Shown here piece after piece: positions 1-34,548 of a stretch of 34,548 bases of DNA. The position numbers and the translations under genes were made by a program. Origin of the DNA: a virus. Its lineage: Duplodnaviria > Heunggongvirae > Uroviricota > Caudoviricetes. Location of the stretch: IMG/VR virus record IMGVR_UViG_2563366980_000013; one strand, given 5' to 3'. The stretch's first letter is position 1. Every line of letters starts with the position of its first letter. The notes under the pieces were generated by a model, which made no database searches, was not told where the DNA came from, and saw nothing but the letters and a program-made list of their open reading frames with translations.

Positions 1-399
1 TTGTACGGTGCCTTTTGCCGTCAGCGAGGCAGCAGGCACTCCCGTTATCTGACTCCACGGGTGAGTGTGGCTGACGGGCGCCTTGCCGGCTGCAAGGTCG
101 TATGCAGCCTTGACGGCTTTTGGTGTGGCGGCCAGCGTTTCAGAGGTGCTGTTGGTGGCACTGCTCAGTTGGGTGAACCCCTTAGCTGTCAGTGTCGCGT
201 CCGGGTGGTTACGGGAACGTACGTGTTCAGCCAGTGACTGTGCGGCTTCCTCCGTTTTTTTCTTCAGCCATTTCGTCCTGTTTGCCAGTTGCCGGGGGGC
301 TCGATTTGATATCCCGTCAGCACCACCCAGAACCGGATCTGATGTCTCCAGTTGATAGATATTTTCTTCCCACTTTTCTGTTTCATTCAGGTTTCCCAT
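1..399 (-). CDS. Tail fibre protein, N-terminal part (gene continues beyond window start)
   Basis: By identity with the duplicated copy (ORF 998..1384) the frame starts at ATG 397-399 just after the gp48-like stop; the duplicated part contains the motif QLSSATNSTSETLAATPKAVK and an HTHPWSQITG-type repeat typical of side tail fibres. No stop is expected before the window edge. Confidence 0.7.
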   Translation of the reverse strand, partial: MGNLNETEKWEENIYQLETSDPVLGGADGISNRAPRQLANRTKWLKKKTEEAAQSLAEHVRSRNHPDATLTAKGFTQLSSATNSTSETLAATPKAVKAAYDLAAGKAPVSHTHPWSQITGVPAASLTAKGTVQ

Positions 400-1015
400 A
401 ATCAACTGCTCCCGTGGTTATAACTGCCATCATGGATGGCGGTATTGTTATAGCGAATGGCCACAGACTGATACTCCAGGCTGGCCAGATGGCAGCGGGC
501 CGGTGCAAATGCAGCGAGCGTCTGACGCAGCATCGCGGCCTGATCGTTAGTAATGGGCTGTTTCAGAATAACGCGATAAACCGCCCAGGCGGCTGCATCT
601 CCATGAACAAACAGTCCGTTATAGCTGCGATTGCCGTCGTAACTGAGACGACCTGTGCCTTCAATCAGATCCACTTCACCAAAGCCAAAACGGCGGATAA
701 CTTCCCGGATTGACCACGGCGTCCCTTTATACCGGTGTAGTTCGATGGCTGCTTTTATAAGCATGCGGCGAACATCGTCCGATTCCGCCAGCTCCCAGCC
801 ATCGCCAGACAGTGAGAACTGCTCGCCCAGCCATGGCAGCGCAGAACTGTCGACGATATCGACGAGAAAGACCATCAGTACGCTCAGGTCGATGTTATCC
901 AGCCGCCCTGCCAGTCTTCCCAGCGTCCTGAGACTGATATCACCCTCAAGCGGTGGCGGGAGTTGTAATGGCTCAGTCATCAGACACTCCACTCATGTTA
1001 AGTGTGATCGCCGTA
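37..1015. repeat. Tandem direct duplication, copy 1 (979-bp unit)
   Basis: Sequence 37-1017 reappears at 1016-1996; ORF track gives identical proteins at 65..355 vs 1044..1334 and 402..992 vs 1381..1971 (offset exactly 979). Confidence 0.9.
402..980 (-). CDS. Baseplate/tail protein, P2 gpI / Mu gp48-like (copy B)
   Basis: 192-aa product from ATG (fifth residue of track ORF 402..992); position after the J-like gene and before the tail fibre; identical to copy A. Confidence 0.7.
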   Translation of the reverse strand: MTEPLQLPPPLEGDISLRTLGRLAGRLDNIDLSVLMVFLVDIVDSSALPWLGEQFSLSGDGWELAESDDVRRMLIKAAIELHRYKGTPWSIREVIRRFGFGEVDLIEGTGRLSYDGNRSYNGLFVHGDAAAWAVYRVILKQPITNDQAAMLRQTLAAFAPARCHLASLEYQSVAIRYNNTAIHDGSYNHGSS

Positions 1016-1378
1016 CACTCCCGTTATCTGACTCCACGGGTGAGTGTGGCTGACGGGCGCCTTGCCGGCTGCAAGGTCGTATGCAGCCTTGACGGCTTTT
1101 GGTGTGGCGGCCAGCGTTTCAGAGGTGCTGTTGGTGGCACTGCTCAGTTGGGTGAACCCCTTAGCTGTCAGTGTCGCGTCCGGGTGGTTACGGGAACGTA
1201 CGTGTTCAGCCAGTGACTGTGCGGCTTCCTCCGTTTTTTTCTTCAGCCATTTCGTCCTGTTTGCCAGTTGCCGGGGGGCTCGATTTGATATCCCGTCAGC
1301 ACCACCCAGAACCGGATCTGATGTCTCCAGTTGATAGATATTTTCTTCCCACTTTTCTGTTTCATTCAGGTTTCCCAT
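998..1378 (-). pseudogene. Truncated 5' fragment of tail fibre gene created by the tandem duplication
   Basis: First ~122 codons identical to the tail fibre start in copy 1, then the reading frame crosses the duplication junction and stops after 6 unrelated codons (..VYGDHT*). Confidence 0.6.
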
Positions 1379-1994
1379 AATCAACTGCTCCCGTGGTTAT
1401 AACTGCCATCATGGATGGCGGTATTGTTATAGCGAATGGCCACAGACTGATACTCCAGGCTGGCCAGATGGCAGCGGGCCGGTGCAAATGCAGCGAGCGT
1501 CTGACGCAGCATCGCGGCCTGATCGTTAGTAATGGGCTGTTTCAGAATAACGCGATAAACCGCCCAGGCGGCTGCATCTCCATGAACAAACAGTCCGTTA
1601 TAGCTGCGATTGCCGTCGTAACTGAGACGACCTGTGCCTTCAATCAGATCCACTTCACCAAAGCCAAAACGGCGGATAACTTCCCGGATTGACCACGGCG
1701 TCCCTTTATACCGGTGTAGTTCGATGGCTGCTTTTATAAGCATGCGGCGAACATCGTCCGATTCCGCCAGCTCCCAGCCATCGCCAGACAGTGAGAACTG
1801 CTCGCCCAGCCATGGCAGCGCAGAACTGTCGACGATATCGACGAGAAAGACCATCAGTACGCTCAGGTCGATGTTATCCAGCCGCCCTGCCAGTCTTCCC
1901 AGCGTCCTGAGACTGATATCACCCTCAAGCGGTGGCGGGAGTTGTAATGGCTCAGTCATCAGACACTCCACTCATGTTAAGTGTGATCGCCGTA
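1016..1994. repeat. Tandem direct duplication, copy 2 (979-bp unit)
   Basis: Same as copy 1; the junction at 1016/1017 shares a 2-bp 'ca' microhomology with the distal end at 1995/1996. Confidence 0.9.
1381..1959 (-). CDS. Baseplate/tail protein, P2 gpI / Mu gp48-like (copy A)
   Basis: Identical to copy B; its start ATGACTGA overlaps the stop of the upstream J-like gene (translational coupling). Confidence 0.7.
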   Translation of the reverse strand: MTEPLQLPPPLEGDISLRTLGRLAGRLDNIDLSVLMVFLVDIVDSSALPWLGEQFSLSGDGWELAESDDVRRMLIKAAIELHRYKGTPWSIREVIRRFGFGEVDLIEGTGRLSYDGNRSYNGLFVHGDAAAWAVYRVILKQPITNDQAAMLRQTLAAFAPARCHLASLEYQSVAIRYNNTAIHDGSYNHGSS

Positions 1995-3055
1995 CAGTTT
2001 GCCCATTCGTTTTCTGCCACCACCCTCAGTGCCGGTGTCACCAGTTCAACCTGGTACACCCCGGAAACGGACAATGCACTGATAATCTGGCTGGGGACAA
2101 TATCGCGTCCCAGCGTGGCGGCACGTGATGCCACCCAGTTCTGTATGGCGCTGTTAGCGGCATCTTTTACAGACCTGGCATCCTGATCACGATAGATCGT
2201 AATCCTGGCTTCAATGGTGTAATCCACCTTCACTGGTGTTTTAGCCCGCACTGTATCAGTGAGTGGCCTGACTTTCTCATCAGAGCAGAAACTCTCTACC
2301 AGCGTGAGAACACCGCCGTCCGGCAGACCGGTACTGAGCAGCGGATACAGATCTACGGTCCCGGGAACCGGGGAAAGCACAGCAACATCGACAATGTTGG
2401 GATGGGCCTGCATGGCATGAAAGCGGTATGCGCCACGGCTTCCGGCATTGGTGAATGACTCCGGGGCCAGCCTGATACGCTCCCGGAGCCTGTCATCGTC
2501 TTCCTGTTCTGAACCGCCGGAACTGGCCGTCAGATTGCTCACCAGCAGGTCGACGTTATCAATCTCATCGAGTAACTGACTGACCTGCGCAGGTTGCCAG
2601 CCGTTACCAGCGGTACCGGGTTCGGTACAGGTGGACGTGACATTGACCAGCAGCAATCCGGCCTTCAGTACCACATCTGTATCGGTGGCAAAAATAACGC
2701 TGTCGGAAGCGCTGACGCGGGTGCCTGCCGGGATCAGCACATCAATGGTCAGTGCCTCATCCACAGAGAACTGAAGTGTGGTGGTGGCAGGCTGCGCGGC
2801 AAGGCGGTATACACCAACCAGTTCTCCGAGGTAATCAATCATCGGCTCTCGTGAAAAGGCGACCAGATTCTGCTTTGCTGCCTCCTGTACCGCAACCCTG
2901 ACCAGCATTTCGCGATAGGCCCACAGATCAATCAGCAGACGTTCTGCCTGTGCCGGGTACAGCGTTTTGCCGGTATCCGCTTCATACTTCGCAATCATTT
3001 CTGCTGTGATTTTGTCGGCATCGCGTTCAATAAAATCGGGTTCTGTCAGCGCCAT
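1952..3055 (-). CDS. Baseplate protein J-like (Mu gp47 / P2 gpJ family)
   Basis: 367-aa ORF; position between the W-like and I-like genes; sequence character consistent with baseplate J family. Confidence 0.7.
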   Translation of the reverse strand: MALTEPDFIERDADKITAEMIAKYEADTGKTLYPAQAERLLIDLWAYREMLVRVAVQEAAKQNLVAFSREPMIDYLGELVGVYRLAAQPATTTLQFSVDEALTIDVLIPAGTRVSASDSVIFATDTDVVLKAGLLLVNVTSTCTEPGTAGNGWQPAQVSQLLDEIDNVDLLVSNLTASSGGSEQEDDDRLRERIRLAPESFTNAGSRGAYRFHAMQAHPNIVDVAVLSPVPGTVDLYPLLSTGLPDGGVLTLVESFCSDEKVRPLTDTVRAKTPVKVDYTIEARITIYRDQDARSVKDAANSAIQNWVASRAATLGRDIVPSQIISALSVSGVYQVELVTPALRVVAENEWANCTAITLNMSGVSDD

Positions 3056-3393
3056 AGCAGCTCCTGAGTCCGGGTCTGTCCGTCTGAGCCTTTCCAGCTC
3101 ACCCGGAGCGTAAGATGTTCGCCGTCGACGGCGGGTTTAACTGACATAAGCTGGCAGCGGGGCTCCCAGCGCCGGATGGCATCGACGGATTCGCGCACCA
3201 CATGCGGAATGGCCCGGTCTACAGGCCAGTCGATATAAAGATGCAGATTGCTGCCGAACTCCGGGCGATGCGGGTCGCTGCCGCGGGGAGTCCGCAGGAT
3301 AATTTGAATCGCCTGCCGGATATCATCCAGCCCCCGGACAATTTCGCCGGGAGCCTGCAGGGCTGGTTGCCAGAATACTGAGGTCGTTTTCAT
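3046..3393 (-). CDS. Baseplate wedge protein, GPW/gp25-like (Mu gp46)
   Basis: 115-aa ORF; size and position typical of GPW/gp25; overlaps the J-like start. Confidence 0.65.
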   Translation of the reverse strand: MKTTSVFWQPALQAPGEIVRGLDDIRQAIQIILRTPRGSDPHRPEFGSNLHLYIDWPVDRAIPHVVRESVDAIRRWEPRCQLMSVKPAVDGEHLTLRVSWKGSDGQTRTQELLWR

Positions 3394-3447
3394 GGGGGCA
3401 GTATTGCCCCCGTGCGGGAACGCTGATATTAAAGGCGTTTAAGAAGC

Positions 3448-4044
3448 TCAGTGGGAGTGGTGGCTGGAGTTTTCGCCATCAGACAGCATACTGCCCGTGG
3501 CATGGGCATTCCCTTTAATCTCGATATTGCCATGGATGGTCGCGGTAACACCTTTACCACCAGAACCCGCCATGCCTCCTTCGTAAATCAGCTTACCCCT
3601 GACACGCAGATCTCCGGTAAGTTCGGTTTCCGGTGCGTCAATCGTGGCTTTCTGTGTTTTCAATACCACATCAGCACCACACTCAATGACAATATGCTCA
3701 ATGCCGCCCCGGATGGTCAGAGTGTGCGTCTTCCGGTTGTAGCTGTACTCTGCACCATCAGCAAACCGGGTTCCCCGGATATTTTTGTCACTGAACGGTG
3801 GTTTATCGACGTCTGAGTACACCGCGCCCAGAATAACACCATCCTCGCCGTTGGCATCGAGCAGCACCTCAACCTGCTCCCCCACGTCAGGGAGCCAGTA
3901 ATCTTTGTTATCCTGGGTATTGCGCTGCAGCACGTTAAGCCAGTTTGTGCGCAGGTTATCGCATTCAGGCAGACGAACGCGGGCCTGAACCCTGTCGGCA
4001 TCAACGGCACTGACCGTACCGACCTGACGAGTGACACCAGTCAT
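3448..4044 (-). CDS. Baseplate assembly protein V / spike (Mu gp45-like)
   Basis: 198-aa ORF with a Gly-rich C-terminal part; position after the gpD-like gene. Confidence 0.65.
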   Translation of the reverse strand: MTGVTRQVGTVSAVDADRVQARVRLPECDNLRTNWLNVLQRNTQDNKDYWLPDVGEQVEVLLDANGEDGVILGAVYSDVDKPPFSDKNIRGTRFADGAEYSYNRKTHTLTIRGGIEHIVIECGADVVLKTQKATIDAPETELTGDLRVRGKLIYEGGMAGSGGKGVTATIHGNIEIKGNAHATGSMLSDGENSSHHSH

Positions 4045-5195
4045 TTTTTCTTCTCCTTAATCACCGTCGATGTACTGCCATCCGGGTGATAAACCGTGAG
4101 TTTCTGAGTTTTTTGTTTTTTCCCTCTTGTGACTGGCCCCCGTGCCACTTCCAGCTCTGTGGTGTAGCCGCTGTTACGGTCAAACGCATGGCGGGCAGTG
4201 GTTATGAGCCATGGCCCGGATAACTGCCCAAAACCCACCAGTTCAATTTTGTTGCCTGCTGTCAGTTGAGGTGTTCCCGTCAGCGTCAGGGAGCCGTTCT
4301 GCTGGTATTCGTTATGTCTGGCCAGTGCTGAATCCGCTTTAATCCGGGCACTGTCCGGGTCGCTGACGCGGCTGTTAACTTTAAGTGAGTCAGCGCTGGT
4401 AACCTTACCACCTTTGAGCTTTTTGTCGCTTTCACGGGTACCACCATCAGCTTCGTAGACGATCAGTTTTTTACTGCTGCTTTTCTGGTGTTTTACCTTT
4501 GCAGATTTATAGACCCGGTTGATGGTGTCACGCAGGGAAAAGCGGGCCACATCCTGCGGTTTTAACTGCCTGACCGGCTCCTGACTGCGCAGTGTGGCCA
4601 GATGAGAAAAAATCAGCTGGTCACTGACCACTTTCACTGCATAACCATACTCGCTGGCCAGCCGGCGCAGAAAACCCACGTCGGTTTCAGCATACTGGGT
4701 CACCCGGTCGATTCTGATGGACTCAATGCTGCCCACCAGTTTCAGTCGGTGCTTTCTGGCAATCCGCCCCGCAACAGCTGCCAGCGTGGTGTTCTCAAAA
4801 CCACGACTGGTTTTAGTCCGCAGGGCACTGTTAACCGAGGTGGCCACCCCACGGATAGAAACAACGGAAGCGGGCGAACTCACTTCGATCTCGTCTATAG
4901 AGAACGTACCGCAGGACAGCAGCTTCTCGCCCTGATAGCCCATTTTCAGCGTCAGCGTGTCACCCTTGCCCGGATACCATTTATCCAGCCAGCGGCCATC
5001 GGTGTCGTCCAGCTCCACCTCAATGGTATCGGACTCATTTTTGATGTTATCGCTCCAGGTCACACGGGTGACATAAGGCGCGATATCAGAGGTGATGTTT
5101 TTCTGCAGATACCACAGAGTGAACACCGGTGTCAGCACATCGCTGACGCCGGTTAACGCTGATGTGACTTGCGCAGTGCTGTTTATCTCAGCCAT
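4041..5195 (-). CDS. Tail protein, late control D (gpD) / Mu gp44 (P)-like
   Basis: 384-aa ORF downstream of tape measure and U-like genes; GPD-family size and composition. Confidence 0.65.
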   Translation of the reverse strand: MAEINSTAQVTSALTGVSDVLTPVFTLWYLQKNITSDIAPYVTRVTWSDNIKNESDTIEVELDDTDGRWLDKWYPGKGDTLTLKMGYQGEKLLSCGTFSIDEIEVSSPASVVSIRGVATSVNSALRTKTSRGFENTTLAAVAGRIARKHRLKLVGSIESIRIDRVTQYAETDVGFLRRLASEYGYAVKVVSDQLIFSHLATLRSQEPVRQLKPQDVARFSLRDTINRVYKSAKVKHQKSSSKKLIVYEADGGTRESDKKLKGGKVTSADSLKVNSRVSDPDSARIKADSALARHNEYQQNGSLTLTGTPQLTAGNKIELVGFGQLSGPWLITTARHAFDRNSGYTTELEVARGPVTRGKKQKTQKLTVYHPDGSTSTVIKEKKK

Positions 5196-5398
5196 GGGGC
5201 AATATCCTCTTCTGTACGGGCTTCTTCAGCCTCAATCACTGGGATCAGTAACAACAGCCCGGAGGGCAGCACCGGCGTGATGGCCACGTGCGGATTGGCG
5301 GCAATAATCCGGGGATAGCCCAGCGGGTCACCGTAGTACTGCCATGCCAGCGAATCCCAGCGCTCTCCGTCACGGGTAACATGTTCAAGAAACATCAC
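5183..5398 (-). CDS. Tail protein X-like small protein (LysM-like)
   Basis: 71 aa; motif ERWDSLAWQYYGD resembles the P2 gpX family. Confidence 0.55.
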   Translation of the reverse strand: MMFLEHVTRDGERWDSLAWQYYGDPLGYPRIIAANPHVAITPVLPSGLLLLIPVIEAEEARTEEDIAPWLR

Positions 5399-6279
5399 AC
5401 ACTCCTCGTCAGTATTCTGGCGGCCATTGCACTTAATCCCGGAGACATGCGGTTGAATGCTGTGCCGGCGGCGTTAAGCTGCCCGGAAACGGTATCCAGA
5501 GCACCTGCAATATTTCTTTTGTCCACACCACTCAGCGCAGACTGTGCCTGCTGTACATACGTGGCTGCTTCGCTGGCTGTTCTGGCCAGACTGATGGCAT
5601 CGGGCATGGATTCAGAGAGTGCGTTAAACGCCGGAATACTTTTCCCCAGAGCGCCGGATATATTACCCAGTCCGCTCATCAGTCCCGGCACACGGGTCAG
5701 CGCGACAACGGGGTTACCCTTCATTTTCTGCGCCACCCGAACGGTACTGATGGTGGTCTGGAGTACAGACTGCGCCTGTTTCGCATAGTTGACGCCGTTA
5801 CGGACGAACTGCGCCACCCCGGAAGGCGATGGAACAGCACCAGATATGGCCCCGGCACCGGGAACCTGCCTGCGTATTGCCGGCGGTTGCAGAGGATTTT
5901 TCGGGTCACCGGTGTATTCCCGGAGAGACACGGTGGCACTGACAGCCAGCACGTTACCGGTGCTGTCTGTCTGCTCGCTGGTTGCGGTCACATCGGTAAT
6001 CACGAACCAGCCGCGATAGTCACCGTTGCCGAAGACCAGCGCCAGTGCCTGATGGGCCTTCATGGCTGTTCGCACTCTCGCCAGCTCCACGTCGGGCACA
6101 CAATAATGCTGATGGAGGACCAGGCTTATCTGGATTTCGTCCAGCCTGTCGCCGACGAACTGCAGGCCGGGTTTACCCTCGATGCGGGCATGCTCCGCAT
6201 AATCGACGCCAAACGTGGCCTCGAAGCCGTCCCAGTAGGTAATCAGTTCAAACTCAATATCACCCAGTACGGCAAACAT
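5395..6279 (-). CDS. Tail protein, gpU-like N-terminal domain / Mu N (DNA circulation)-like
   Basis: 294 aa immediately downstream of tape measure; N-terminal ~120 aa pattern resembles gpU-type tail proteins, followed by an Ala/Gly/Ser-rich C-terminal region. Confidence 0.5.
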   Translation of the reverse strand: MFAVLGDIEFELITYWDGFEATFGVDYAEHARIEGKPGLQFVGDRLDEIQISLVLHQHYCVPDVELARVRTAMKAHQALALVFGNGDYRGWFVITDVTATSEQTDSTGNVLAVSATVSLREYTGDPKNPLQPPAIRRQVPGAGAISGAVPSPSGVAQFVRNGVNYAKQAQSVLQTTISTVRVAQKMKGNPVVALTRVPGLMSGLGNISGALGKSIPAFNALSESMPDAISLARTASEAATYVQQAQSALSGVDKRNIAGALDTVSGQLNAAGTAFNRMSPGLSAMAARILTRSV

Positions 6280-9164
6280 CAGCTGTACTCCTTACGTTGT
6301 TTCTGAGCCAGCAGACGCTCCAGCATTTTTTCCAGCTCATGCAGGCTCATATTCAGGGCACCAGCCAGCCCGGCAGGCGCTGCGGTTTCCTTACCATTGA
6401 GGAAAAACTGAGGATTAAAGCTGACCTGGATACCACCAGACGTTCCACCGCCGGTTGCAGCTGCACCACGGCCTGAATATCCGGCAGCCATGATTTCAGG
6501 CGAGGGGATACGGGGAACATCCGGTGTCATCTCATTTGCCAGACGTTGCCCTGGTAAAATCGATGCCCGGGTGGAGAGCGGGATAGCGGGCATGGAAGAC
6601 AAACTATTGATTACGGCTCCGATCGCATTTTTAGCAGACGACATAAACCCGTTGATATCGGGCAACGGCATACTGAAGCGAACACCTGAAGTGTTATCCC
6701 GTATTTCTGGCCCCTGAATGCTCACGGGCATTTTGGGGAGCAGTTCACTGGCCATTCGCTGCCCGGCCAGAGCTGCAAGCGGAGTGGTCCGCTGCAGGCC
6801 AATGGCGGCCCCCTGCGCGATATTGTCACCAAAGCCCATAAACACGCGGCTCGGCGAATGAATACCCAGCTTTTCACTGAACCAGCCACTGATGCTGTCA
6901 CCCATTCCGGTTACACTGGATTTGAGCGACTCCCATTTGTTTTTGATACCGTTAATCAGACCGTCGACAAGATGGCCACCGAAGTCGGTGAACTTTGCCG
7001 GCAGATCAACACCAAGATATTTCAGCGCAGCTGCAAAGGCTTTATAGAGCAGACCTGCCGGCGACCAGTTAATCAGCAGCTTACCAGTTCCCGCGATACC
7101 GCCGTTAAAGGCTTCCTGAATGTCAGCCCAGCACTGTTTAAACCAGCTACTGATGCTGTCACCCATTCCGGTTACACTGGATTTGAGCGACCCCCATTTG
7201 TTTTTGATACCGTTAATCAGACCGTCGATAAGATGGCCACCGAAGTCGGTGAACTTTGCCGGCAGAGCAACGCCGAAATATTTCAGCGCAGCAGCAAAGG
7301 CTTTATAGAGCAGGCCTGCCGGCGACCAGTTAATCAGCAACTTACCAATTCCCACAATGCCGCCGTTAAAGGCTTCCTGAATGTCTGCCCAGCGCTGTTT
7401 AAACCAGCCACTGACTGCCCACCAGTTGCGGTAGATAAGGTAAGCTGCTGCCGCGACAGCGGTGATAACGAGACCGATGGGATTCATCATCAGCGCACGT
7501 CCAATCCAGAGAACAGCACGTCCGGCGAGCATAATTCCGCGAACCAGCCAGCGGAGCTTACCGCCTTGCCCCAGTGCGAGCGACAGACGAAGCCAGTTGG
7601 CCCGAAGTAAAACAGCATTTTTCCAGACACTTACAAAGGGGGAAATAAGGAGATTCAGCCCCAGTTTGAGACCAACAGTCGCTATCTTAATCGCAAGGAG
7701 CGCACTGATGAGCTTAAAAGCCCCACTGACAAATTGCGGGTGAGTCGCTACCCAGTGTTTTGCCCCCTGAATGAGTGGAAGCAGTTCCTGAGTCAGAGAA
7801 ATAAAAGATGGAGCTAATTGATCGCCCAGCGTAATTGCCAGATCGCGACTGCTGACCATAAGTGTTTTAGTGGCTTCAAGGGGAGATTTCAGCCGCTGAT
7901 CATAAGCACTGGCAAGCAAATCGTTATCCGCAGCCCTGAGAGCACCGGCACGGATCTCTCGATATCTGTCCATGTTGGCCAGCATCGGGCGGATAAATGC
8001 CATGACCTGCATATCCGCGAACATATCGCCCAGACCAAAGTTTTTCGCCAGAGCCTGAAGTGCCTCATCTCTTGCCGTATCATTCTTTATTTTCATGGCG
8101 GATTTGAAGCCGGCCAGCGCTTCGGGGCTTTTGGCATTGAGGTAACGTTCTATAACACTCAACATCCCTTCAATCGGAGAGATCCCCGCAGCTTTATAAC
8201 TCGCAATAGATCCCTGCAAATCAATACCCAGATCAGCAAACTGTTTCTGAGTATCGCGGGCAAAAATTTTGGTAAGAAAGTTTTTAAAATTATTGGCTGC
8301 TTCGTCGGTGGAACCTGCACCGATTTTTGCTATCTGGAGACTGGCCCCGATTTCAGCAACAGCCTCTTTTCCACTGGCAATACCCGCCATCATTGGGGCC
8401 AGGGACTGCATCCACTTGACCTGATCCGGGATTTCAAATGCCCCCTGGTCACCGGCATAAGCCATAATATTCTGAACGGCACCAAAATCTCTGGCCGCAC
8501 CTTTCAGGGAGTTTTGCCAGACTGCGGCCACTTTTGCCCAGTCCTGAGCAGACGTGCGTGTTGCCGTTGCCGCGCGGGCAATATCCGGCATCAGAAAACC
8601 GATATCTGACACATTATCAATATTGTCGCTGATGAGTGAACCCACCGCCTCCTGCAGCTCATCCTGATACTGATTGTATTTAAGCGCCCAGCCTTTTATC
8701 TGTCCGGCAAGTGCATCCCGCGTTTTATTGTCATATTTTGCGGTGATCGACATATCAATCATTTTGTCCTGAAAAGACATGGACTGCTGAACGGCAGGGG
8801 AAACCGTATGATAAACAGTCTGTGCCATGCCATACGCTTCAATCCCCTGACCATACAGCGCCATGCGGTTAGCTTTCAGCGCATCACTGGTAGCGGATGC
8901 CGCTGACAGACGGCGCTGCTGGCGCTCAATTTGCTCCATGGTGCGGCTTACCCGCAGCAGCTCGCTGTTGAGATGCTGCATCCGGGAAGAACCCAGTTGA
9001 CCATAACGTTCTGTTGCACGGGTTAAAGCGTTCTGACGTTCCTGCAGGCGGCGTGAGGTATCGCTCAGGGAATCAAGCGCACGGCGGGTACCGCTCATTG
9101 CAGAACGGAATGTGCTGCCAATCATCCCGCCGATAACAACGCCGACTGAAAACTGTCCCGACAT
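6279..9164 (-). CDS. Tail tape measure protein
   Basis: 961-aa ORF between tail chaperone and baseplate genes; hydrophobic central segment and internal in-frame tandem repeats. Confidence 0.85.
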   Translation of the reverse strand: MSGQFSVGVVIGGMIGSTFRSAMSGTRRALDSLSDTSRRLQERQNALTRATERYGQLGSSRMQHLNSELLRVSRTMEQIERQQRRLSAASATSDALKANRMALYGQGIEAYGMAQTVYHTVSPAVQQSMSFQDKMIDMSITAKYDNKTRDALAGQIKGWALKYNQYQDELQEAVGSLISDNIDNVSDIGFLMPDIARAATATRTSAQDWAKVAAVWQNSLKGAARDFGAVQNIMAYAGDQGAFEIPDQVKWMQSLAPMMAGIASGKEAVAEIGASLQIAKIGAGSTDEAANNFKNFLTKIFARDTQKQFADLGIDLQGSIASYKAAGISPIEGMLSVIERYLNAKSPEALAGFKSAMKIKNDTARDEALQALAKNFGLGDMFADMQVMAFIRPMLANMDRYREIRAGALRAADNDLLASAYDQRLKSPLEATKTLMVSSRDLAITLGDQLAPSFISLTQELLPLIQGAKHWVATHPQFVSGAFKLISALLAIKIATVGLKLGLNLLISPFVSVWKNAVLLRANWLRLSLALGQGGKLRWLVRGIMLAGRAVLWIGRALMMNPIGLVITAVAAAAYLIYRNWWAVSGWFKQRWADIQEAFNGGIVGIGKLLINWSPAGLLYKAFAAALKYFGVALPAKFTDFGGHLIDGLINGIKNKWGSLKSSVTGMGDSISSWFKQCWADIQEAFNGGIAGTGKLLINWSPAGLLYKAFAAALKYLGVDLPAKFTDFGGHLVDGLINGIKNKWESLKSSVTGMGDSISGWFSEKLGIHSPSRVFMGFGDNIAQGAAIGLQRTTPLAALAGQRMASELLPKMPVSIQGPEIRDNTSGVRFSMPLPDINGFMSSAKNAIGAVINSLSSMPAIPLSTRASILPGQRLANEMTPDVPRIPSPEIMAAGYSGRGAAATGGGTSGGIQVSFNPQFFLNGKETAAPAGLAGALNMSLHELEKMLERLLAQKQRKEYS
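6880..7401. repeat. Two tandem ~261-bp (87-codon) in-frame repeats inside the tape measure gene
   Basis: Protein repeats WFKQ(R/C)WADIQEAFNGGI..KSSVTGMGDSIS(S/G) occur twice in succession; DNA copies roughly 90% identical by eye. Boundaries approximate. Confidence 0.8.
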
Positions 9165-9239
9165 AGTGGTTAACCTCCGGGGAAGGTGAAAAGACGTGAG
9201 GGGATAACGCAGAACAGCCGCTACTGGCGGCTGTCTGTA

Positions 9240-9497
9240 CTATGATTTGTCGCCGTACTCGCTTTTTATTTGCTCTTCAGCCTGCTCCAGCCACATCTCC
9301 AGATCGTCAGTATCGAGGGCATCAATCTCCCCCGGCTGAAACCGGAACCATCTCGCCAGCAGCCCCTGCGCCTGCGTCAGCGCCCTGGTTGCTCTCACCC
9401 ATCCCCGTGATGAGCTGAAATCGTTTCTGTAACTGCAGGTAATCAGCCAGATCCATATTGTCGAGATCTTCCGGGAGAAGACCAGTACTGCGGGCAA
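9240..9497 (-). CDS. Frameshift-extension ORF of the tail assembly chaperone (E'/GT-like); probably not translated independently
   Basis: Open in the +1 (equivalently -2) frame relative to 9322..9657 and overlapping its 3' end; acidic tail (..DALDTDDLEMWLEQAEEQIKSEYGDKS). Confidence 0.45.
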   Translation of the reverse strand: MPAVLVFSRKISTIWIWLITCSYRNDFSSSRGWVRATRALTQAQGLLARWFRFQPGEIDALDTDDLEMWLEQAEEQIKSEYGDKS

Positions 9498-9657
9498 TCA
9501 GCGGTTCGTCCCAGTCTGCCGGGTTTTTGCTGATTTTGCGCACCTGCTTCAGGTCTTTTACCGTCAGGCGTTTCAGTTCAACCAGCTCAATTCTGGTACC
9601 TGCAGCAGTGGTGAAGGGATAAGACAATTTAAAAGTATCGGATGGGGTCTGTGACAT
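9322..9657 (-). CDS. Tail assembly chaperone (gpE/gpG-like)
   Basis: 111-aa ORF between tube and tape measure; Gly/Ala-rich C-terminus; 3' region overlapped by a second open frame. Confidence 0.6.
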   Translation of the reverse strand: MSQTPSDTFKLSYPFTTAAGTRIELVELKRLTVKDLKQVRKISKNPADWDEPLIARSTGLLPEDLDNMDLADYLQLQKRFQLITGMGESNQGADAGAGAAGEMVPVSAGGD

Positions 9658-9754
9658 GATTGTGCTCCTGTGTAAGTTCAGGGCAGTATGTCGGGAGAAG
9701 CGCGTGACGGATATTAAAGGAGATTAAGAAGAAGGGGCCGGAGCCCCTGTGATG

Positions 9755-10036
9755 TCAGCAAGTGCGAAACCCCTTGCAGTTACGCAGGAAAGCGATGAGA
9801 AGCGTCTTTCCCTCAGATTTGCCGGTGCCGGAGAACCAGTGGTCGGGAGGCTCCCATGCTTCAATCAAATCCGCCAGTTTGCGGGCCTTTGAACGTGTGC
9901 AGTCAATCGGGTCATTGGTTTTACGGGTATTAAAAAGGGTTTCCACCCCCGGAATATCAAGGAGGGTAAACCACGTACCATTTGACATGCCCAGTGCCGC
10001 ACATCGTCCTCCTTTATCCGTCAGTTCAACACTCAC
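9755..10036 (-). CDS. Hypothetical protein between tail tube and chaperone
   Basis: 93-aa ORF with GTG start 3 nt after the tube stop (or 77 aa from an internal ATG); same strand as the operon. No family recognised. Confidence 0.35.
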   Translation of the reverse strand: MSVELTDKGGRCAALGMSNGTWFTLLDIPGVETLFNTRKTNDPIDCTRSKARKLADLIEAWEPPDHWFSGTGKSEGKTLLIAFLRNCKGFRTC

Positions 10037-10038
10037 CG

Positions 10039-10560
10039 TCAGCCCCCGATATTGATCCGATAGTCAGTCAGTTGATCAACGCCACCGACGCGGAAGATGT
10101 TGGCCAGATAGTCCAGTTGCAGCAACTCTTCACCATCCAGTACCTGTCTGATATACGTGCAGGTGAAGCTACTGGAGAACTCGGCGTTCTCGTGCTGTTT
10201 AAACGTCCCCAGCGGGTTCTTCTTGAACATAATTGTCAGGAAGGTGACCAGCGGGATTTCGTCGATCAGCCCCTGCGAGCTGTAGCGCTGGACGCTGGAG
10301 CGACACTGCAGCGCCAGCGACTTGTACGGGTTCGCGGCAGACAGCATCGCATCGCGGTAAAAGCTGTTCCATTTGATTTCGCCTTCCAGTTTGTCAAAAC
10401 CAGCCGGGAGTTCCACCTTACCCACCATCCCCAGTGCCTTGTGTTCCTGCATAATCATGGAGACATCGGGGAGTTTAACTTCCTCAGCCCGTCCCAGCAG
10501 GTTAGTACCATCCAGATAGATGTTGGCATTCGTGATGCGGTTTATCTCAATCTTTGACAT
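10039..10560 (-). CDS. Tail tube protein (Mu M / P2 FII-like)
   Basis: 173-aa ORF directly downstream of the sheath gene; start overlaps the sheath stop. Confidence 0.75.
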   Translation of the reverse strand: MSKIEINRITNANIYLDGTNLLGRAEEVKLPDVSMIMQEHKALGMVGKVELPAGFDKLEGEIKWNSFYRDAMLSAANPYKSLALQCRSSVQRYSSQGLIDEIPLVTFLTIMFKKNPLGTFKQHENAEFSSSFTCTYIRQVLDGEELLQLDYLANIFRVGGVDQLTDYRINIGG

Positions 10561-11987
10561 CAGTTGCCCCCTTTCAGGGTTAACAGGTATTCCGAGGTGA
10601 TCTCAGTCTCAAACGTCAGTCGCTCCAGCGGCGGTGGTGGCGTATATTTGTAGCTCAGCAACAGGTGCCCGGCGGCCAGCTCCGTCTCCGGATTGCGGGC
10701 AGGATCAAACCAGCAACGGAAGCCCAGTACCGCACCATCACCAGTCATTTTGCGACCGTAGGCGTTGACCGACTCCGTCAGTGCATCAATCAGCGCCTGA
10801 GTAATCGGCATGTCGATGTACTGCTGGCTGAAATAACGAATGGACTCGTTGATCACATCACCGGTGCGGCGAACGTTCTCAAAGTTACGCATATGGGTGA
10901 CCGTTGGCCATGCTGCCGTCCGGTTACCCCACAGACGAAGGCCGCTGCCGTAACTGCTGAATACCGTGGTGATCCCCTGTTCGTTAAGCAGGTTCACCTC
11001 ACTCTGCGGGTCATCAATCATCGCGGACAGCTGGCGCTCCACGCCGGTGATCCCCAGAATCTCCTGATTGGAGGATGACCACCAGTAGCCCTTGTCCAGA
11101 TCGACTCTGGCACGCAGACCTGCTGCACGCTGGCTGAGCGGCTCCAGACGCTCTGTGTTTGTCACCGGGTCATATACCTTCACATGCGGATAGCACAGAC
11201 GGACGCGGTCGGAGCTGGTATTGAAGTTGATGGTGCCTTCCGGGCCACGACCTGCCAGAGCCTGTGCAAAGGTGGTACCGACAGGCGCATCAATGTAGGT
11301 TACCGCGCCCAGCTTCTCTGCCATGGCGATAAGCTCAACTGCGACACTCTTCTGGGTGCAGAACACCGGCGCAATCAGAATTTTGGCGAAATAGCCGTAC
11401 AGGTTGAAGCTGTCGTTAAGCAGCTTCATGCCGGTTCGGTTTCCGGCGCTGTTCACCCCGCCGATGATGTCCGCCGCAGTCACCTTCGACGGGTCCGCGT
11501 ACTCATAGCTCACCTTCACGCTGCCACCGGCCTCAATAGCCTTGCCCAGGTTCGTGAGCACACCCGCCTGCGCATCAACACGGTAGTCCGTGTTCGCCGT
11601 GTGGGAGGTGCTGCCTTCACTGTTTTTCACCACCACATTAGCGACAACCGGATGCGCCAGTCTGGCCTGCCCTGTCGATTTGTCAAAGGTAACCACCTCA
11701 TCCTCGATCGCCGTTTTATGTTTCGCCGGGTCGAGGACGTTAATGACCAGAACGGTACCTGCACCATGGTCATAAATCGCATCCAGCGCCTGCGGAATGG
11801 TAAAGCCGGTGAACTGGCTGCCAAATGCCGCTGCGTCTTTCTCAGACAGGCACTGTACCAGCGTATTGACATCCCCCATCGGGGCGGTACCAATCAGGCC
11901 AATAACGGCAGATTTCACCGTTTTAACCGGGCGGGCACCGTTTTCCACCTCAATGGTTTCGGGACCATGCAGATAGTTAGCTGCCAT
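10560..11987 (-). CDS. Tail sheath protein (Mu L / P2 FI-like)
   Basis: 475-aa ORF in the canonical position of the contractile tail module. Confidence 0.8.
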   Translation of the reverse strand: MAANYLHGPETIEVENGARPVKTVKSAVIGLIGTAPMGDVNTLVQCLSEKDAAAFGSQFTGFTIPQALDAIYDHGAGTVLVINVLDPAKHKTAIEDEVVTFDKSTGQARLAHPVVANVVVKNSEGSTSHTANTDYRVDAQAGVLTNLGKAIEAGGSVKVSYEYADPSKVTAADIIGGVNSAGNRTGMKLLNDSFNLYGYFAKILIAPVFCTQKSVAVELIAMAEKLGAVTYIDAPVGTTFAQALAGRGPEGTINFNTSSDRVRLCYPHVKVYDPVTNTERLEPLSQRAAGLRARVDLDKGYWWSSSNQEILGITGVERQLSAMIDDPQSEVNLLNEQGITTVFSSYGSGLRLWGNRTAAWPTVTHMRNFENVRRTGDVINESIRYFSQQYIDMPITQALIDALTESVNAYGRKMTGDGAVLGFRCWFDPARNPETELAAGHLLLSYKYTPPPPLERLTFETEITSEYLLTLKGGN

Positions 11988-12231
11988 CGGTGTCCTCCGT
12001 TTTCACTTCGCTGTCACTGCTGCTTCTGCGCTTTGGTGACTGCACAGCCGGTGTGCCGGCGGGTTTAGTCTCTTCAGGTACCGGCGTCAGATGTTTCAGC
12101 GCCACCAGTACCTTCACGTAGTCATGCTCCTCCGGCAGGGAAACCGTCTTCCCCGGCCAGAGCAGGATTTCGGTTCCGTCCGACAGCGTGACGCCGCTGG
12201 CCGGGCCGGAATAGCGGTATTCTTTCATCAC
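11977..12231 (-). CDS. Small conserved phage protein (Mu gp38 position)
   Basis: 84 aa; overlaps both neighbouring genes in the operon. Confidence 0.45.
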   Translation of the reverse strand: MMKEYRYSGPASGVTLSDGTEILLWPGKTVSLPEEHDYVKVLVALKHLTPVPEETKPAGTPAVQSPKRRSSSDSEVKTEDTDGS

Positions 12232-12692
12232 TCGCTTTCCTCATAGTTCACTTCGGTTAACAGCGGGCCGGACGGTAAATCGCTGTCTTCGATAAAGACG
12301 CTTTCAGTCGCGAAGTCGAGGGCGTATTGCCACAGCCCCCTGACTTCACCGATAAACACCTCGCGGGTCAGCCAGATACGGCGGCGGCAGCCGGGCGGGG
12401 TGTGGCCACCGAGAATGCGGCGGACAGCATCCAGGACATTAATCGCCCCTTTTTTACCGTTGAGCTGGCGGAAGACCACCGTGACGCAGAGCTGGATAGT
12501 CTGAGACTGGATCACCGCACCGGTATCATCCGGCCTGTCAAAGCGCGATCCTGCATAGCTCAGCAGCAACGCCCCGACAGAATGATTGAGGCGGTATTCG
12601 GACGGCTTTTCCGGGAAGTACTCAACCTGCAGCTGAGGCAGCTTCTCGCGCAACCGGGCCAGCACCGCATCAAGGACGGGCAGAACATTCAT
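12228..12692 (-). CDS. Head-tail joining protein, Mu gp37-like
   Basis: 154 aa; position between gp36-like and sheath-proximal genes. Confidence 0.5.
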   Translation of the reverse strand: MNVLPVLDAVLARLREKLPQLQVEYFPEKPSEYRLNHSVGALLLSYAGSRFDRPDDTGAVIQSQTIQLCVTVVFRQLNGKKGAINVLDAVRRILGGHTPPGCRRRIWLTREVFIGEVRGLWQYALDFATESVFIEDSDLPSGPLLTEVNYEESE

Positions 12693-13138
12693 CAGTATTT
12701 CTCCAGTAAGCCGTCACGACCGCCGAAAGTGGCCGGGCGACTGCGTACACGAAACTCGCCAGGCTCAGGCACATCTTTCTGAGTGGACGGCAGCCCCAGC
12801 GTGAGCCTGTTATCACGTAACTCCCTGAGTTGCCGCAGCGCTTCTTTGTGGTCATCCTTCACCGTATCCGGGAGGTCACCTTCCGGGCGGCGGGCGTAGA
12901 GCCGGTAACGGACCAGCGTGATGGCAATGTCCCGCAGAACAGTCGGTATCTCTGCCAGTGGCAGGATATAGCGTCCGCGCAGATGGGCATCAATCAGCTC
13001 GTCGGCATAGCGGATACAGCTGTCCAACACACGGGTATTCACTGTTGCAGGCGAGTCGAAGTCCATCTCTTCACTGGTGAGCTCGATAAGCGTCCGCTCC
13101 GGCACCTGCGCAAGCAAATCCTCCAGGGTGCAGTACAT
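12692..13138 (-). CDS. Head-tail connector protein, Mu gp36-like
   Basis: Track ORF extends to 13300 but overlaps the upstream gene; the ATG at 13136-13138 (MYCTLEDLLAQ..) directly follows the upstream stop and is the likelier start. Confidence 0.5.
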   Translation of the reverse strand: MYCTLEDLLAQVPERTLIELTSEEMDFDSPATVNTRVLDSCIRYADELIDAHLRGRYILPLAEIPTVLRDIAITLVRYRLYARRPEGDLPDTVKDDHKEALRQLRELRDNRLTLGLPSTQKDVPEPGEFRVRSRPATFGGRDGLLEKY

Positions 13139-13139
13139 G

Positions 13140-13478
13140 TCACACCCCGCGCAGGATACGAATGACGTCGCCTTCACCCCCGGCTTCATCAAGTGCAATA
13201 CCACAGGATTTACCGTCGCCGGACTGCGGCACGGCTCTGGCCTGAGCATCTGACTGAACAGCCACACCACGGCTGACAGCGGCCCCGGCCTCGACAGCAA
13301 TAATGCCCAGAACGCTCACCGGCGTGCTGTCGCCGGTAACAGCATCCACTTCGGCAACCCCGAGCGCTGCGGCACCGGCTTTACAGGGGGTATTATCTGC
13401 CCCGACAAAACGCTGCTGTGCCAGTGCTGCCCCTGCCGTTACGGTTGTGATCAGAATGACCTGCTGAGTGGTTCCCAT
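13140..13478 (-). CDS. Small Ala/Gly/Val-rich head protein (possible decoration/completion protein)
   Basis: 112 aa immediately downstream of the major capsid gene. Confidence 0.45.
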   Translation of the reverse strand: MGTTQQVILITTVTAGAALAQQRFVGADNTPCKAGAAALGVAEVDAVTGDSTPVSVLGIIAVEAGAAVSRGVAVQSDAQARAVPQSGDGKSCGIALDEAGGEGDVIRILRGV

Positions 13479-13487
13479 AACGCCTCC

Positions 13488-14441
13488 TTATTTACTGATA
13501 CCGGTAATGAGATACCCGGCATCGCCACCAACCACGGCGACTTTGTAGATATCGGTATAACGGCAGTACTTCACCTTGCCACCGGCTCCGTCGTATTTGT
13601 CGGCAACAGGCATCCCCTTACGACGCAGGGTGTAGCCGAAGGACGGCTCGTTCTCGTCCGCGCTGTCCGCCCCCGGCTGCGGTTTGCCGACATAGTGCAG
13701 CATCAGATTGTCTCCCCAGATATCCGCCGGCACGCTGTTCTTATCCATTGCCGCTTTCATGGACGGCAGGGAGACTGGGGCACCGATGACGATCTCTTCG
13801 ATCTGAAAGAGGTCCTGCAGGATTTCTGTGGTGATGCGCTTGCGTTCGTTGGCTCCGATGGCGGCCTGAATCGCCGGGTGGAACTTCAGCAGCGCCATCA
13901 CGCCGGCCCCCATGGTCATCAGGTTAGGACGCAGCCCCGTGGCCGTACGGACCGCTTCCATACCGGCTTCAATCACCCCGATGGGGTCCCCCTTACCACC
14001 GGCCCAGCGATCACTGGCTGTCAGTTTTTTGACGTGCCCGGTACGGTAGACCTTTTCATCCTGAGCCAGACGGGCAGCGATAAGTTCACGGCGCAGGTTC
14101 ACGCCATTCGTGGCGCGACGGATGGCCTTGCTCTCTTCGTTAAACATGGACTCCGCCTGCTCGCGATAGTCCACCGGCGCAGCCAGATCGTGTTCACCCA
14201 GCACCAGGTCCAGCGTGCCTGTTTTTTCACGGACCAGAACATTGCTGTCCGCCCCGACGGCACGCTCGGTGTCATATTCCACAAAGGCGGTTTTCCCGAA
14301 GGTCGGTACACGCACGCCTTCCTTGTCCGTCAGCACGACGGGGAAAATACGTTCGCCGATGAATGCGGCATTTTTATAGCCACGGGCGATACTGGTCAGT
14401 ACCGGATCAACGACACGTTTACCTTTTAAGTAATCAGACAT
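13488..14441 (-). CDS. Major capsid protein (Mu gpT-like)
   Basis: 317 aa; N-terminus MSDYLKGKRVVDPVLTSIARGY.. and position after the protease/scaffold gene are typical of Mu T-family. Confidence 0.8.
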   Translation of the reverse strand: MSDYLKGKRVVDPVLTSIARGYKNAAFIGERIFPVVLTDKEGVRVPTFGKTAFVEYDTERAVGADSNVLVREKTGTLDLVLGEHDLAAPVDYREQAESMFNEESKAIRRATNGVNLRRELIAARLAQDEKVYRTGHVKKLTASDRWAGGKGDPIGVIEAGMEAVRTATGLRPNLMTMGAGVMALLKFHPAIQAAIGANERKRITTEILQDLFQIEEIVIGAPVSLPSMKAAMDKNSVPADIWGDNLMLHYVGKPQPGADSADENEPSFGYTLRRKGMPVADKYDGAGGKVKYCRYTDIYKVAVVGGDAGYLITGISK

Positions 14442-33745: not shown

Positions 33746-34187
33746 ACAACGTCTTATCCAGCTCATTCATATTGCCCGTAATGAACTGGGTATGGATGAA
33801 GACACCTACCGCCAGATGTTACAGGGGCTGACCGGTAAAGCCTCAACCAAAGGAATGGATACCACACAACTAAACTGCGTGCTGGAATCCATGAAAAGGA
33901 AAGGCTTTCGCGTTAAGCCTGCCGGAAAAGCCAGCTCCGGTTTACCGCTGGATAACCATCCGCAGTCCAGGAAAATCCGTGCGCTATGGATTGAAATGGC
34001 TGCTGCCGGCATTGTTCGTGACCGTTCAGAAAATGCATTAGCGCGGTGGATCAAGCGGGAAACGGGCATCAGCGCCCTGCGCTGGCTCAATACTGAACAG
34101 GCAAGCAGTGTTATTGAGAAACTGAAGAAGTGGCAGCGCAGAGCTGCGGGAGTAAAACATGAGCGACCTGAATCAGTTTCGAAGTAA
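33735..34187 (+). CDS. gemA: GemA-like regulatory protein (Mu gp16 family)
   Basis: 150 aa from ATG after AAAGGAG; N-terminus MMIKQRLIQLIHIARNELGMDEDTYRQML..; located immediately upstream of mor, as in Mu. Confidence 0.6.
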   Translation: MMIKQRLIQLIHIARNELGMDEDTYRQMLQGLTGKASTKGMDTTQLNCVLESMKRKGFRVKPAGKASSGLPLDNHPQSRKIRALWIEMAAAGIVRDRSENALARWIKRETGISALRWLNTEQASSVIEKLKKWQRRAAGVKHERPESVSK

Positions 34188-34548
34188 AGGGCCGGAACTC
34201 CTGGTGGAACTGGCACAGCATACCTCTGAGACCGTTCGCGAGATTATTGATATTGAGCCCGCAATTGCCGACCAGATTGGTCAGGCTGTCGCGAACCGAA
34301 TGATGCAGGTCTGGGGCGGGCAAAACGTTTATTTCCCAATGGGCATGGTATGGAAGGTCAGTCAGCGCGACCGGGAAATCTTCAGGGAGTTTAACGGACG
34401 CAACCACCACGAACTGGCCCGCAAATTTGGTGTTTCGCTTCAGTGGGTCTACAGCGTGGTTAAGCGGGTAAGAAAAGAAGAACTGGATCGGATGCAGGGC
34501 AAGCTATTTGCTGATGAACCCGATGCAGATACGGAGAAAAAAGAGTAA
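34159..34548 (+). CDS. mor: Middle-operon transcriptional activator Mor (Mor/C family)
   Basis: 129 aa; C-terminal HTH region FNGRNHHELARKFGVSLQWVYSVVKRVRKEE; stop codon at the window end. Confidence 0.7.
   Translation: MSDLNQFRSKGPELLVELAQHTSETVREIIDIEPAIADQIGQAVANRMMQVWGGQNVYFPMGMVWKVSQRDREIFREFNGRNHHELARKFGVSLQWVYSVVKRVRKEELDRMQGKLFADEPDADTEKKE

Follow-up and report, generated by a model that had tools for sequence, protein, structure and literature searches.

The window analysed here, a 34,548-nt stretch of viral DNA (IMG/VR record IMGVR_UViG_2563366980_000013), carries near its left end a tandem repeat that gives it two baseplate genes of the same kind. The question is whether this repeat belongs to the phage or to the assembly from which the sequence was taken.

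Extent of the repeat and genes affected

The perfect 979-bp tandem duplication, first noticed from the letters of the sequence, is present in the deposited record: positions 37–1017 are identical to positions 1016–1996 over an exact run of 981 nt with a period of 979, and owing to this length a chance origin is impossible. Positions 1016–1017 are common to both units and form a 2-nt overlap ('CA' on the plus strand, 'TG' on the coding strand), with no further homology at the junction. N is absent throughout the window, and both the repeat and the junction lie in gap-free sequence. All genes in this region are encoded on the minus strand, and the features are as follows:

1952–3055, minus strand: J-like baseplate gene, 367 aa, intact; its final 45 nt are the start of the duplicated unit
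1016–1996, no strand: unit copy 2, continuous on its right with the native J gene
1381–1959, minus strand: I-like baseplate gene in its native position after J, 192 aa, PF09684 (Tail_P2_I), Mu gp48-like
1016–1017, no strand: junction between fibre nt 361–363 and a point in J that lies 45 nt ahead of its stop codon
998–1378, minus strand: chimeric fibre fragment ORF, 126 aa, PF03406
37–1017, no strand: unit copy 1, exactly identical to 1016–1996 and nearest to the contig end
402–980, minus strand: second I-like gene, the probably redundant copy, identical to 1381–1959
1–399, minus strand: 5' part of the tail fibre gene (first 399 nt), cut off at the window edge; position 1 corresponds to fibre nt 399

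The gene calls and Pfam matches agree with the sequence-only reading both in the arrangement, two intact I-like genes with a truncated fibre fragment of 127 codons between them, and in the identities proposed, an I/gp48-like baseplate gene (PF09684) and the 5' end of a tail fibre gene (PF03406). WP_000138756.1, annotated in closed genomes, has the same sequence as the product of the I-like gene at 1381–1959. The chimeric ORF at 998–1378 consists of fibre codons 1–121 followed by YGDHT and a stop codon, which come from the 3' end of J read in another frame. Its 126-aa product (ELE10592.1) is on record on one contig only, from E. coli KTE55, and a 128-aa version using an upstream TTG start was looked up and is not on record. 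Copy 1 (37–1017) is probably the redundant piece, in which the preceding 979 nt recur before 36 new nucleotides follow (window 1–36).

Prophage context

The window is a BcepMu-like transposable prophage, and its positions 1–3100 are 98.4% identical to Escherichia phage PhiKM (PQ738613, Bcepmuvirus). Contigs that encode a Mor protein identical to that of the window carry rve, AAA_22, Phage_Mu_Gam, GemA and Mor upstream, with ORF lengths that match those of the window, and the Pfam matches of the tail genes are Phage_GPD, Phage_base_V, GPW_gp25, Baseplate_J and Tail_P2_I. The features of a BcepMu-like context are present, namely a DDE transposase, a MuB-like ATPase, Gam, GemA and Mor, together with a Mu-type head and a P2-type tail module. 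The prophages listed at 100.0% identity are located at different sites (fhlA/hyp in KTE55, dinG in SF-088 and yniB in S1-ZIM-01-A), and contigs with the same Mor protein have many further chromosomal flanks.

BcepMu-like phages such as PhiKM and the window share the early genes (transposase, Gam, GemA and Mor), the order of J (Mu gp47-like), I (gp48-like) and then the fibre gene, a serine invertase downstream and an invertible fibre region of the Mu G-segment type. However, only one I gene separates J from the fibre gene in PhiKM and in all other relatives examined, whereas the window has two. A conserved functional two-cassette arrangement was rejected on three grounds: the two copies do not differ, the ending of the fibre fragment is out of frame, and the arrangement is shared by no relative.

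Occurrence of the junction in other assemblies

This prophage family is widespread in E. coli: among 5,426 complete genomes, about 640–680 gave a match, the number varying with the query. The J–I–fibre arrangement is standard in it. J runs on into I without interruption, as in the native order, in 637 of 638 closed genomes, at a median of one place per genome. The junction between the two units showed a different distribution: a 160-nt query across it, at a coverage of at least 80%, was found in none of the 614 matching complete E. coli genomes, and an exact scan with a 46-mer did not find it in IMG/VR, in the GTDB representative genomes or in the JGI metagenomes.

The comparison with related prophages, proposed earlier as a check, showed that the relatives are single-copy. 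Eight closed genomes are listed at 100.0% identity to window positions 1997–26000 (four of them share the top bit score), and the closed genomes so listed have a single copy of the unit. When one unit is deleted from the window, the resulting 2,121-nt sequence is found exactly in three closed genomes (FDAARGOS_1252, S1-ZIM-01-A and SF-088). Likewise, every other fetched locus covering I, drafts included, has one I gene only.

These comparisons bear on two explanations in which the extra copy exists in the cell. According to the first, the tandem duplication is genuine and arose very recently, in strain KTE55 alone, by microhomology-mediated illegitimate recombination or slippage between fibre nt ~362 and the 3' end of J. 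It would be consistent with a junction in gap-free contig sequence, with a 2-nt microhomology typical of illegitimate recombination, with the perfect identity of the copies and with the fact that I and the fibre start downstream keep their reading frames. However, the junction occurs in no other assembly (neither the 614 closed genomes, nor the three contig collections, nor any fetched draft), the closed genomes listed at 100.0% identity are single-copy, three of them carrying the exact unit-deleted sequence, and a 2-nt overlap is also expected by chance in about 1 of 16 blunt joins. Together with the position of the breakpoint, described below, this makes a real duplication improbable.

The second explanation is that KTE55 contains another, partial prophage tail region starting near the 3' end of J, and that its contig was mis-scaffolded into the first copy. 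The family can indeed be multi-copy, as the J–I region occurs at up to three places per genome and a 24-kb query has a median of two. However, the J–I region is single-copy in most genomes (median one place), the second unit is directly preceded by the end of the first and not by a foreign flank, and a de Bruijn graph would collapse a shared segment and never write it twice. Such a second region is very improbable.

Source scaffold and its gaps

The reverse complement of window positions 1–11378 is identical to KB732698.1 (GCA_000351505.1), a scaffold of the short-read draft of E. coli KTE55. In this scaffold a gap of 14 N adjoins window position 1, and the 78 nt on its two sides are identical. 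The repeat is therefore only 36 nt from the contig end. The gap is followed by a 332-nt piece of the fibre gene and then by a second gap of 1,590 N (~1.59 kb). The earlier expectation that an intact fibre gene continues beyond the window start did not hold, since in the source assembly this gene is broken by the two gaps.

Just outside the window lies an invertible tail fibre segment of the Gin/Cin type with its serine invertase gene (Resolvase and HTH_7). The crossover sites are ...ACCTTGGTTT and AAACCAACGT..., and the flanking pentamers have exchanged places in SF-088 relative to S1-ZIM-01-A, which shows that both orientations occur in nature. The fibre genes of these two closed genomes diverge at nt 1122, and the 332-nt piece of KTE55 ends at fibre nt 1121, exactly at the inversion crossover site where they diverge. 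A junction made by the serine invertase through a 2-nt crossover was also considered and rejected, because neither breakpoint, compared by eye, resembles the AAACCnnGGTTT-type crossover sites.

Repeats in the fibre gene and assembly breakpoints

The fibre gene contains three near-identical internal repeats, in which the exact stretches (nt 286–399 = 754–867, 322–407 = 622–707 and 622–699 = 790–867) measure 78–114 nt. Fibre nt 399, which is window position 1, is the last nucleotide of the 114-nt repeat and borders the 14-N scaffold gap. A de Bruijn simulation was run on the SF-088 locus, and the unitig boundaries were read at several values of K. At K = 79 the boundaries were predicted at fibre nt 363, 399 and 790, and at K = 77 or 78 the first of them moved to nt 361 or 362. 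The breaks in KTE55, at fibre nt 361–363 (junction), 399 (contig end) and 790 (restart after the gap), coincide with these simulated boundaries. The range K = 77–79 was fitted post hoc, and as the boundaries at 399 and 790 hold for any K up to 79, the coincidence at nt 361–363 alone is specific to it. No publication stating the assembler of the KTE55 draft was found. We take the Broad KTE series to have been assembled with ALLPATHS-LG at K = 96, a value which in the simulation would put the boundaries at fibre nt 380 and 773, unlike the KTE55 breakpoints.

Breaks at the same places were found in independent short-read drafts, in which contigs stop at fibre nt 362–365 and carry one I gene; the 121-aa partial fibre product of such contig ends is indexed in 229 collection blocks, and three contigs were read. 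Other drafts stop at fibre nt 399–401 (indexed in 42 blocks), also with one I gene, and in two scaffolded drafts N gaps begin at fibre nt 400. Short-read contigs thus end most often, within this gene, at 1–4 nt from the fibre-side breakpoint of the repeat. The three internal repeats and the invertible segment make the fibre gene break short-read assemblies reproducibly.

The J-side breakpoint (window 1996/1997) is of another kind: it coincides with no repeat or mosaic boundary, and the de Bruijn simulation predicted no unitig boundary there. Its interpretation as a mosaic or repeat boundary was ruled out by this simulation and by the contiguity of J and I in the closed genomes.

Origin of the repeat

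On the basis of sequence comparison, we consider it about 90% probable that the duplication is false, created in the assembly or gap-filling of the KTE55 draft, and no feature of the prophage. The initial alternative of a recent duplication or an assembly artefact can accordingly be narrowed: the artefact is strongly favoured by the gap at 36 nt, the recurrent breakpoint and the junction found in no other assembly, and the recent duplication is not. As for a real duplication, nothing in biology would direct its breakpoint to the place where short-read contigs most often end, at a distance of 36 nt from a gap. In bacterial chromosomes, genuine tandem duplications by microhomology have read support and bear no relation to assembly-graph boundaries or scaffold gaps. 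The KTE55 repeat resembles them in its head-to-tail arrangement of ~1 kb, its 2-nt microhomology and the perfect identity of its copies, but differs in coinciding with both a graph boundary and a scaffold gap and in occurring in one draft only. If it were nevertheless real, J, I and the full-length fibre would all stay intact, the I-like baseplate gene would be doubled and the duplication would be days to years old. The 126-aa N-terminal fibre fragment could then compete with full-length trimers for docking at the baseplate, lowering the infectivity of the released phage.

The false duplication could have arisen as follows. Short-read assembly graphs branch at the internal repeats of the fibre gene and at the downstream Gin/Cin-type invertible segment, and the KTE55 contig with J, I and the 5' end of the fibre gene would halt at fibre nt ~363, with the last k-mer that is unique to that side. 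A second piece, consisting of the final 979 nt of the same contig and 36 further bases up to nt 399, may then have been pasted on with the overlap left untrimmed. The outcome would be a perfect tandem repeat, a residual 14-N gap, the 332-nt fibre piece and the 1.59-kb gap over the invertible segment. Both the pasting step and the software responsible for it are inferred. The junction is free of N and has a 2-nt overlap, and a de Bruijn mis-join needs a shared k-mer, so that either pasting or chimeric reads must be assumed.

The second of these routes would involve a chimeric library molecule, for example a read over the circularisation point of a ~1-kb mate-pair ('jumping') fragment, which extended the contig. 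In such a read an end is joined to a start exactly as in a tandem duplication. The same-orientation end-to-start join with only 2 nt of homology is what would be found at a circularisation junction; a J-side breakpoint at no sequence feature would also fit. However, the position of the fibre-side breakpoint exactly at a graph boundary is left unexplained by this route, and error correction normally removes single chimeric reads. We regard a chimeric molecule as possible but rather unlikely.

The J-side breakpoint at 1996/1997 is arbitrary under the pasting model, and this speaks against the artefact.

A well-known mark of false duplications in assemblies is a gap beside the duplicated pair (Ko et al. 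2022, Genome Biol 23:205, PMC9516828). The KTE55 case and the homotype false duplications of that study are alike in having identical copies on one scaffold with gaps adjoining the pair, and false duplications in both produce spurious extra genes and are absent from better (closed) assemblies. That study concerned vertebrate assemblies, with heterozygosity as the main cause and a read-depth criterion, whereas KTE55 is haploid and the cause would be the internal repeats of one gene and an invertible DNA segment.

Since the evidence favours an artefact, the consequences suggested for the repeat in the sequence-only reading, a change in the dosage of the I gene and a substrate for fibre-gene rearrangement, are unsupported.

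Meaning for prophage annotation

The assembly probably gave rise both to the deposited protein ELE10592.1 and to what looks like an additional baseplate gene. Perfect repeats that adjoin scaffold gaps should be masked when prophages are scanned for gene duplications. The biological weight of the repeat is small, and its practical use is as a warning.

Genes over the repeat and identity of the prophage

Shifted by 979 nt, the window matches itself exactly over a run of 981 nt (37-1017 = 1016-1996), which bears out the 979-nt tandem repeat described in the sequence-only reading; the window contains no N. Positions 1016-1017 are common to both copies and read CA on the plus strand and TG on the coding strand. 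The gene description in that reading, two I-like baseplate genes with a truncated fibre fragment between them and a fibre gene running past the window start, was also accurate.

Genes over the repeat, in window coordinates
1952-3055, minus: J-like baseplate gene
1381-1959, minus: I-like (Mu gp48-like) gene, 192 aa, PF09684 Tail_P2_I
998-1378, minus: 126-aa ORF, fibre codons 1-121, then YGDHT and a stop from the J 3' end in another frame
402-980, minus: second I-like gene, identical to the first
399 down to 1, minus: fibre gene again, leaving the window at its start

The window is a BcepMu-like transposable prophage of E. coli. Escherichia phage PhiKM, classified as Bcepmuvirus, is 98.4% identical across window 1-3100 and has the same gene order J, I, fibre. 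Transposase, MuB-like, Gam, GemA and Mor genes lie at the far end of the window. Matches to window 1-3100 were present in 676 of 5,426 complete E. coli genomes, and the family is common in this species. Nothing in the gene context is new: the tail module is of the standard BcepMu-like kind, with an invertible fibre region of the Mu G-segment type.

Window 1997-26000 is listed at 100.0% identity in eight closed genomes, with the top bit score in four. Copies listed at 100.0% identity occupy unrelated chromosomal sites, as a transposable phage should show, and this suggests one phage clone in recent, active spread. The flanks inspected in three of the eight lie beside dinG, beside yniB and across the record start (FDAARGOS_1252); the prophage of KTE55, the source strain, lies beside fhlA. 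The matching region of strain 510016 contains IS21-family (IS100) transposase genes. The tape measure gene (6279-9164, minus) carries a 261-nt in-frame tandem repeat (6880-7401, two copies, 94% identical), which appears genuine because the 24-kb stretch around it is listed at 100.0% identity in closed genomes; by coordinate conversion, a 100-N sequencing gap in the PhiKM record falls within this repeat. The window starts at the last base ahead of a gap and finishes precisely with the stop codon of a Mor-like late activator gene (34159-34548); it looks like a prophage region trimmed at gene boundaries, with the prophage end past Mor left out.

The junction in other genomes

A 160-nt query with the junction at its centre matched 614 complete genomes, always as two separate halves, and no record among them covered at least 80% of it. 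The junction-spanning 46-mer was not found in the viral, GTDB-representative and JGI metagenome contig collections. When one 979-nt unit is removed, the remaining 2,121 nt are exact in the closed genomes FDAARGOS_1252, S1-ZIM-01-A and SF-088, each with a single I gene. All loci retrieved from other assemblies that span the I gene carry it once, and KTE55 alone carries it twice. The comparison with related prophages proposed in the sequence-only reading thus found single-copy relatives and the junction in KTE55 alone.

The KTE55 scaffold and the invertible segment

The chimeric 126-aa protein (ELE10592.1) is recorded on one contig only, scaffold KB732698.1 of E. coli KTE55 (GCA_000351505.1); window 1-11378, once reverse-complemented, is identical to this scaffold. 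Window position 1 directly adjoins 14 N (11379-11392 on the KTE55 scaffold), and therefore the junction lies 36 nt from a contig end. Beyond this gap, the scaffold continues with 332 nt of fibre sequence, 1,590 N, a gene for a serine invertase and the fhlA-hyp genes of the host. The junction is thus located in the most broken stretch of a short-read draft scaffold. The KTE55 fibre breaks at three points: nt 361-363 of the gene (duplication junction), 399 (contig end, window position 1) and 790 (restart after the gap). Since the sequence ends at 399 and resumes at 790, the 14-N gap really conceals 390 nt of collapsed repeats (nt 400-789). The 78 nt ahead of the gap recur exactly behind it; they are a segment common to all three fibre repeats and do not represent real overlap between contigs.

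The 332-nt piece ends at fibre nt 1121, the exact point where the SF-088 and S1-ZIM-01-A fibres cease to be identical, at a Gin/Cin-type crossover site ...TCAATTACCTTGGTTT (also given as ...ACCTTGGTTT). The partner site AAACCAACGTTTATCTC (also given as AAACCAACGT...) precedes the invertase start codon by ~60 nt. Between SF-088 and S1-ZIM-01-A, the pentamers beside these sites have traded places, and the segment is therefore inverted in one relative to the other; the opposite orientations yield fibre proteins of 543 and 530 aa with identical sequence as far as nt 1121. As the 332-nt piece ends at a crossover site, the 1.59-kb gap corresponds to the invertible segment, which in KTE55 is replaced by the 1,590 N. 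This Gin/Cin-type segment lies just outside the window, downstream of its start (11393-13886 on the KTE55 scaffold L003; 6030-9399 and 4058-7427 at the fetched loci L010 and L014), and its invertase is of the serine type (Resolvase+HTH_7).

Fibre repeats and contig breaks

The fibre gene of closed genomes, which encodes 530 or 543 aa, contains three near-identical internal repeats. They fall in the Phage_fiber_2 motif region, gene nt 286-867 (gene at L010 7807-9399, minus).

Exact repeats within the fibre gene, in gene nt
286-399 = 754-867: 114 nt
322-407 = 622-707: 86 nt
622-699 = 790-867: 78 nt

A de Bruijn graph was simulated on the SF-088 locus at several K. At K=79, the fibre unitig boundaries include ends at nt 363 and 399 and a start at nt 790; the first shifts to 361 at K=77 and 362 at K=78. 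K=96 gave 380 and 773, and K=127 gave no boundaries in the fibre gene. The values K=77-79 were chosen post hoc, while boundaries 399 and 790 are valid at any K up to 79.

Because of these repeats, contigs of many independent short-read assemblies end at gene nt 362-365 and 399-401, and numerous database entries of 121-146 aa are named 'tail fiber protein, partial'. In the collection, 229 blocks index a 121-aa partial product that ends in ...SQITGV, exactly where the KTE55 fragment departs from the native sequence; three contigs carrying it that were read end at nt 362, 364 and 365. A 133-aa product ending at nt 399 occurs in 42 blocks, and two further scaffolded drafts have N gaps from nt 400, like KTE55. 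None of these independent assemblies broken at the same positions carries the duplication.

Origin of the duplication

Between the recent duplication and the assembly artefact left as alternatives by the sequence-only reading, the evidence above strongly favours the artefact, and we consider the tandem repeat a false duplication with a probability of about 0.9. A contig carrying J, I and the 5' end of the fibre gene would have stopped at its last unique k-mer, about nt 363. A second piece, comprising the last 979 nt of the same contig and 36 bases more, to the repeat end at nt 399, would then have been set after it with the overlap left untrimmed and a residual gap remaining. Such a pasting step, which we infer, would account for the perfect identity, the 36-nt distance, the place where the fibre-side breakpoint falls and the adjoining gaps. 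A gap beside the duplicated pair is a known sign of false duplication (PMC9516828).

In a variant of the artefact, the junction would derive from a chimeric library molecule, for instance one circularised during mate-pair preparation, the junction of which has the topology of a tandem duplication. The junction lies in gap-free sequence with an overlap of only 2 nt and is therefore no simple k-mer mis-join. Nor does the artefact neatly explain the J-side breakpoint (1996/1997), which coincides with neither a repeat nor a mosaic boundary: 637 of 638 genomes have the native J-I junction uninterrupted (median, one place per genome), and the simulation predicted no unitig boundary at this point. 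Because of this 2-nt junction, the featureless J-side breakpoint and the post hoc K, we leave a slight chance to a real, very recent, microhomology-mediated duplication private to KTE55; J, I and the fibre would then stay intact, and an N-terminal fibre fragment would be gained. The finding is nevertheless best filed as an assembly artefact rather than a real feature, and its value is cautionary: neither ELE10592.1 nor the second I gene of KTE55 should be taken as a gained gene.
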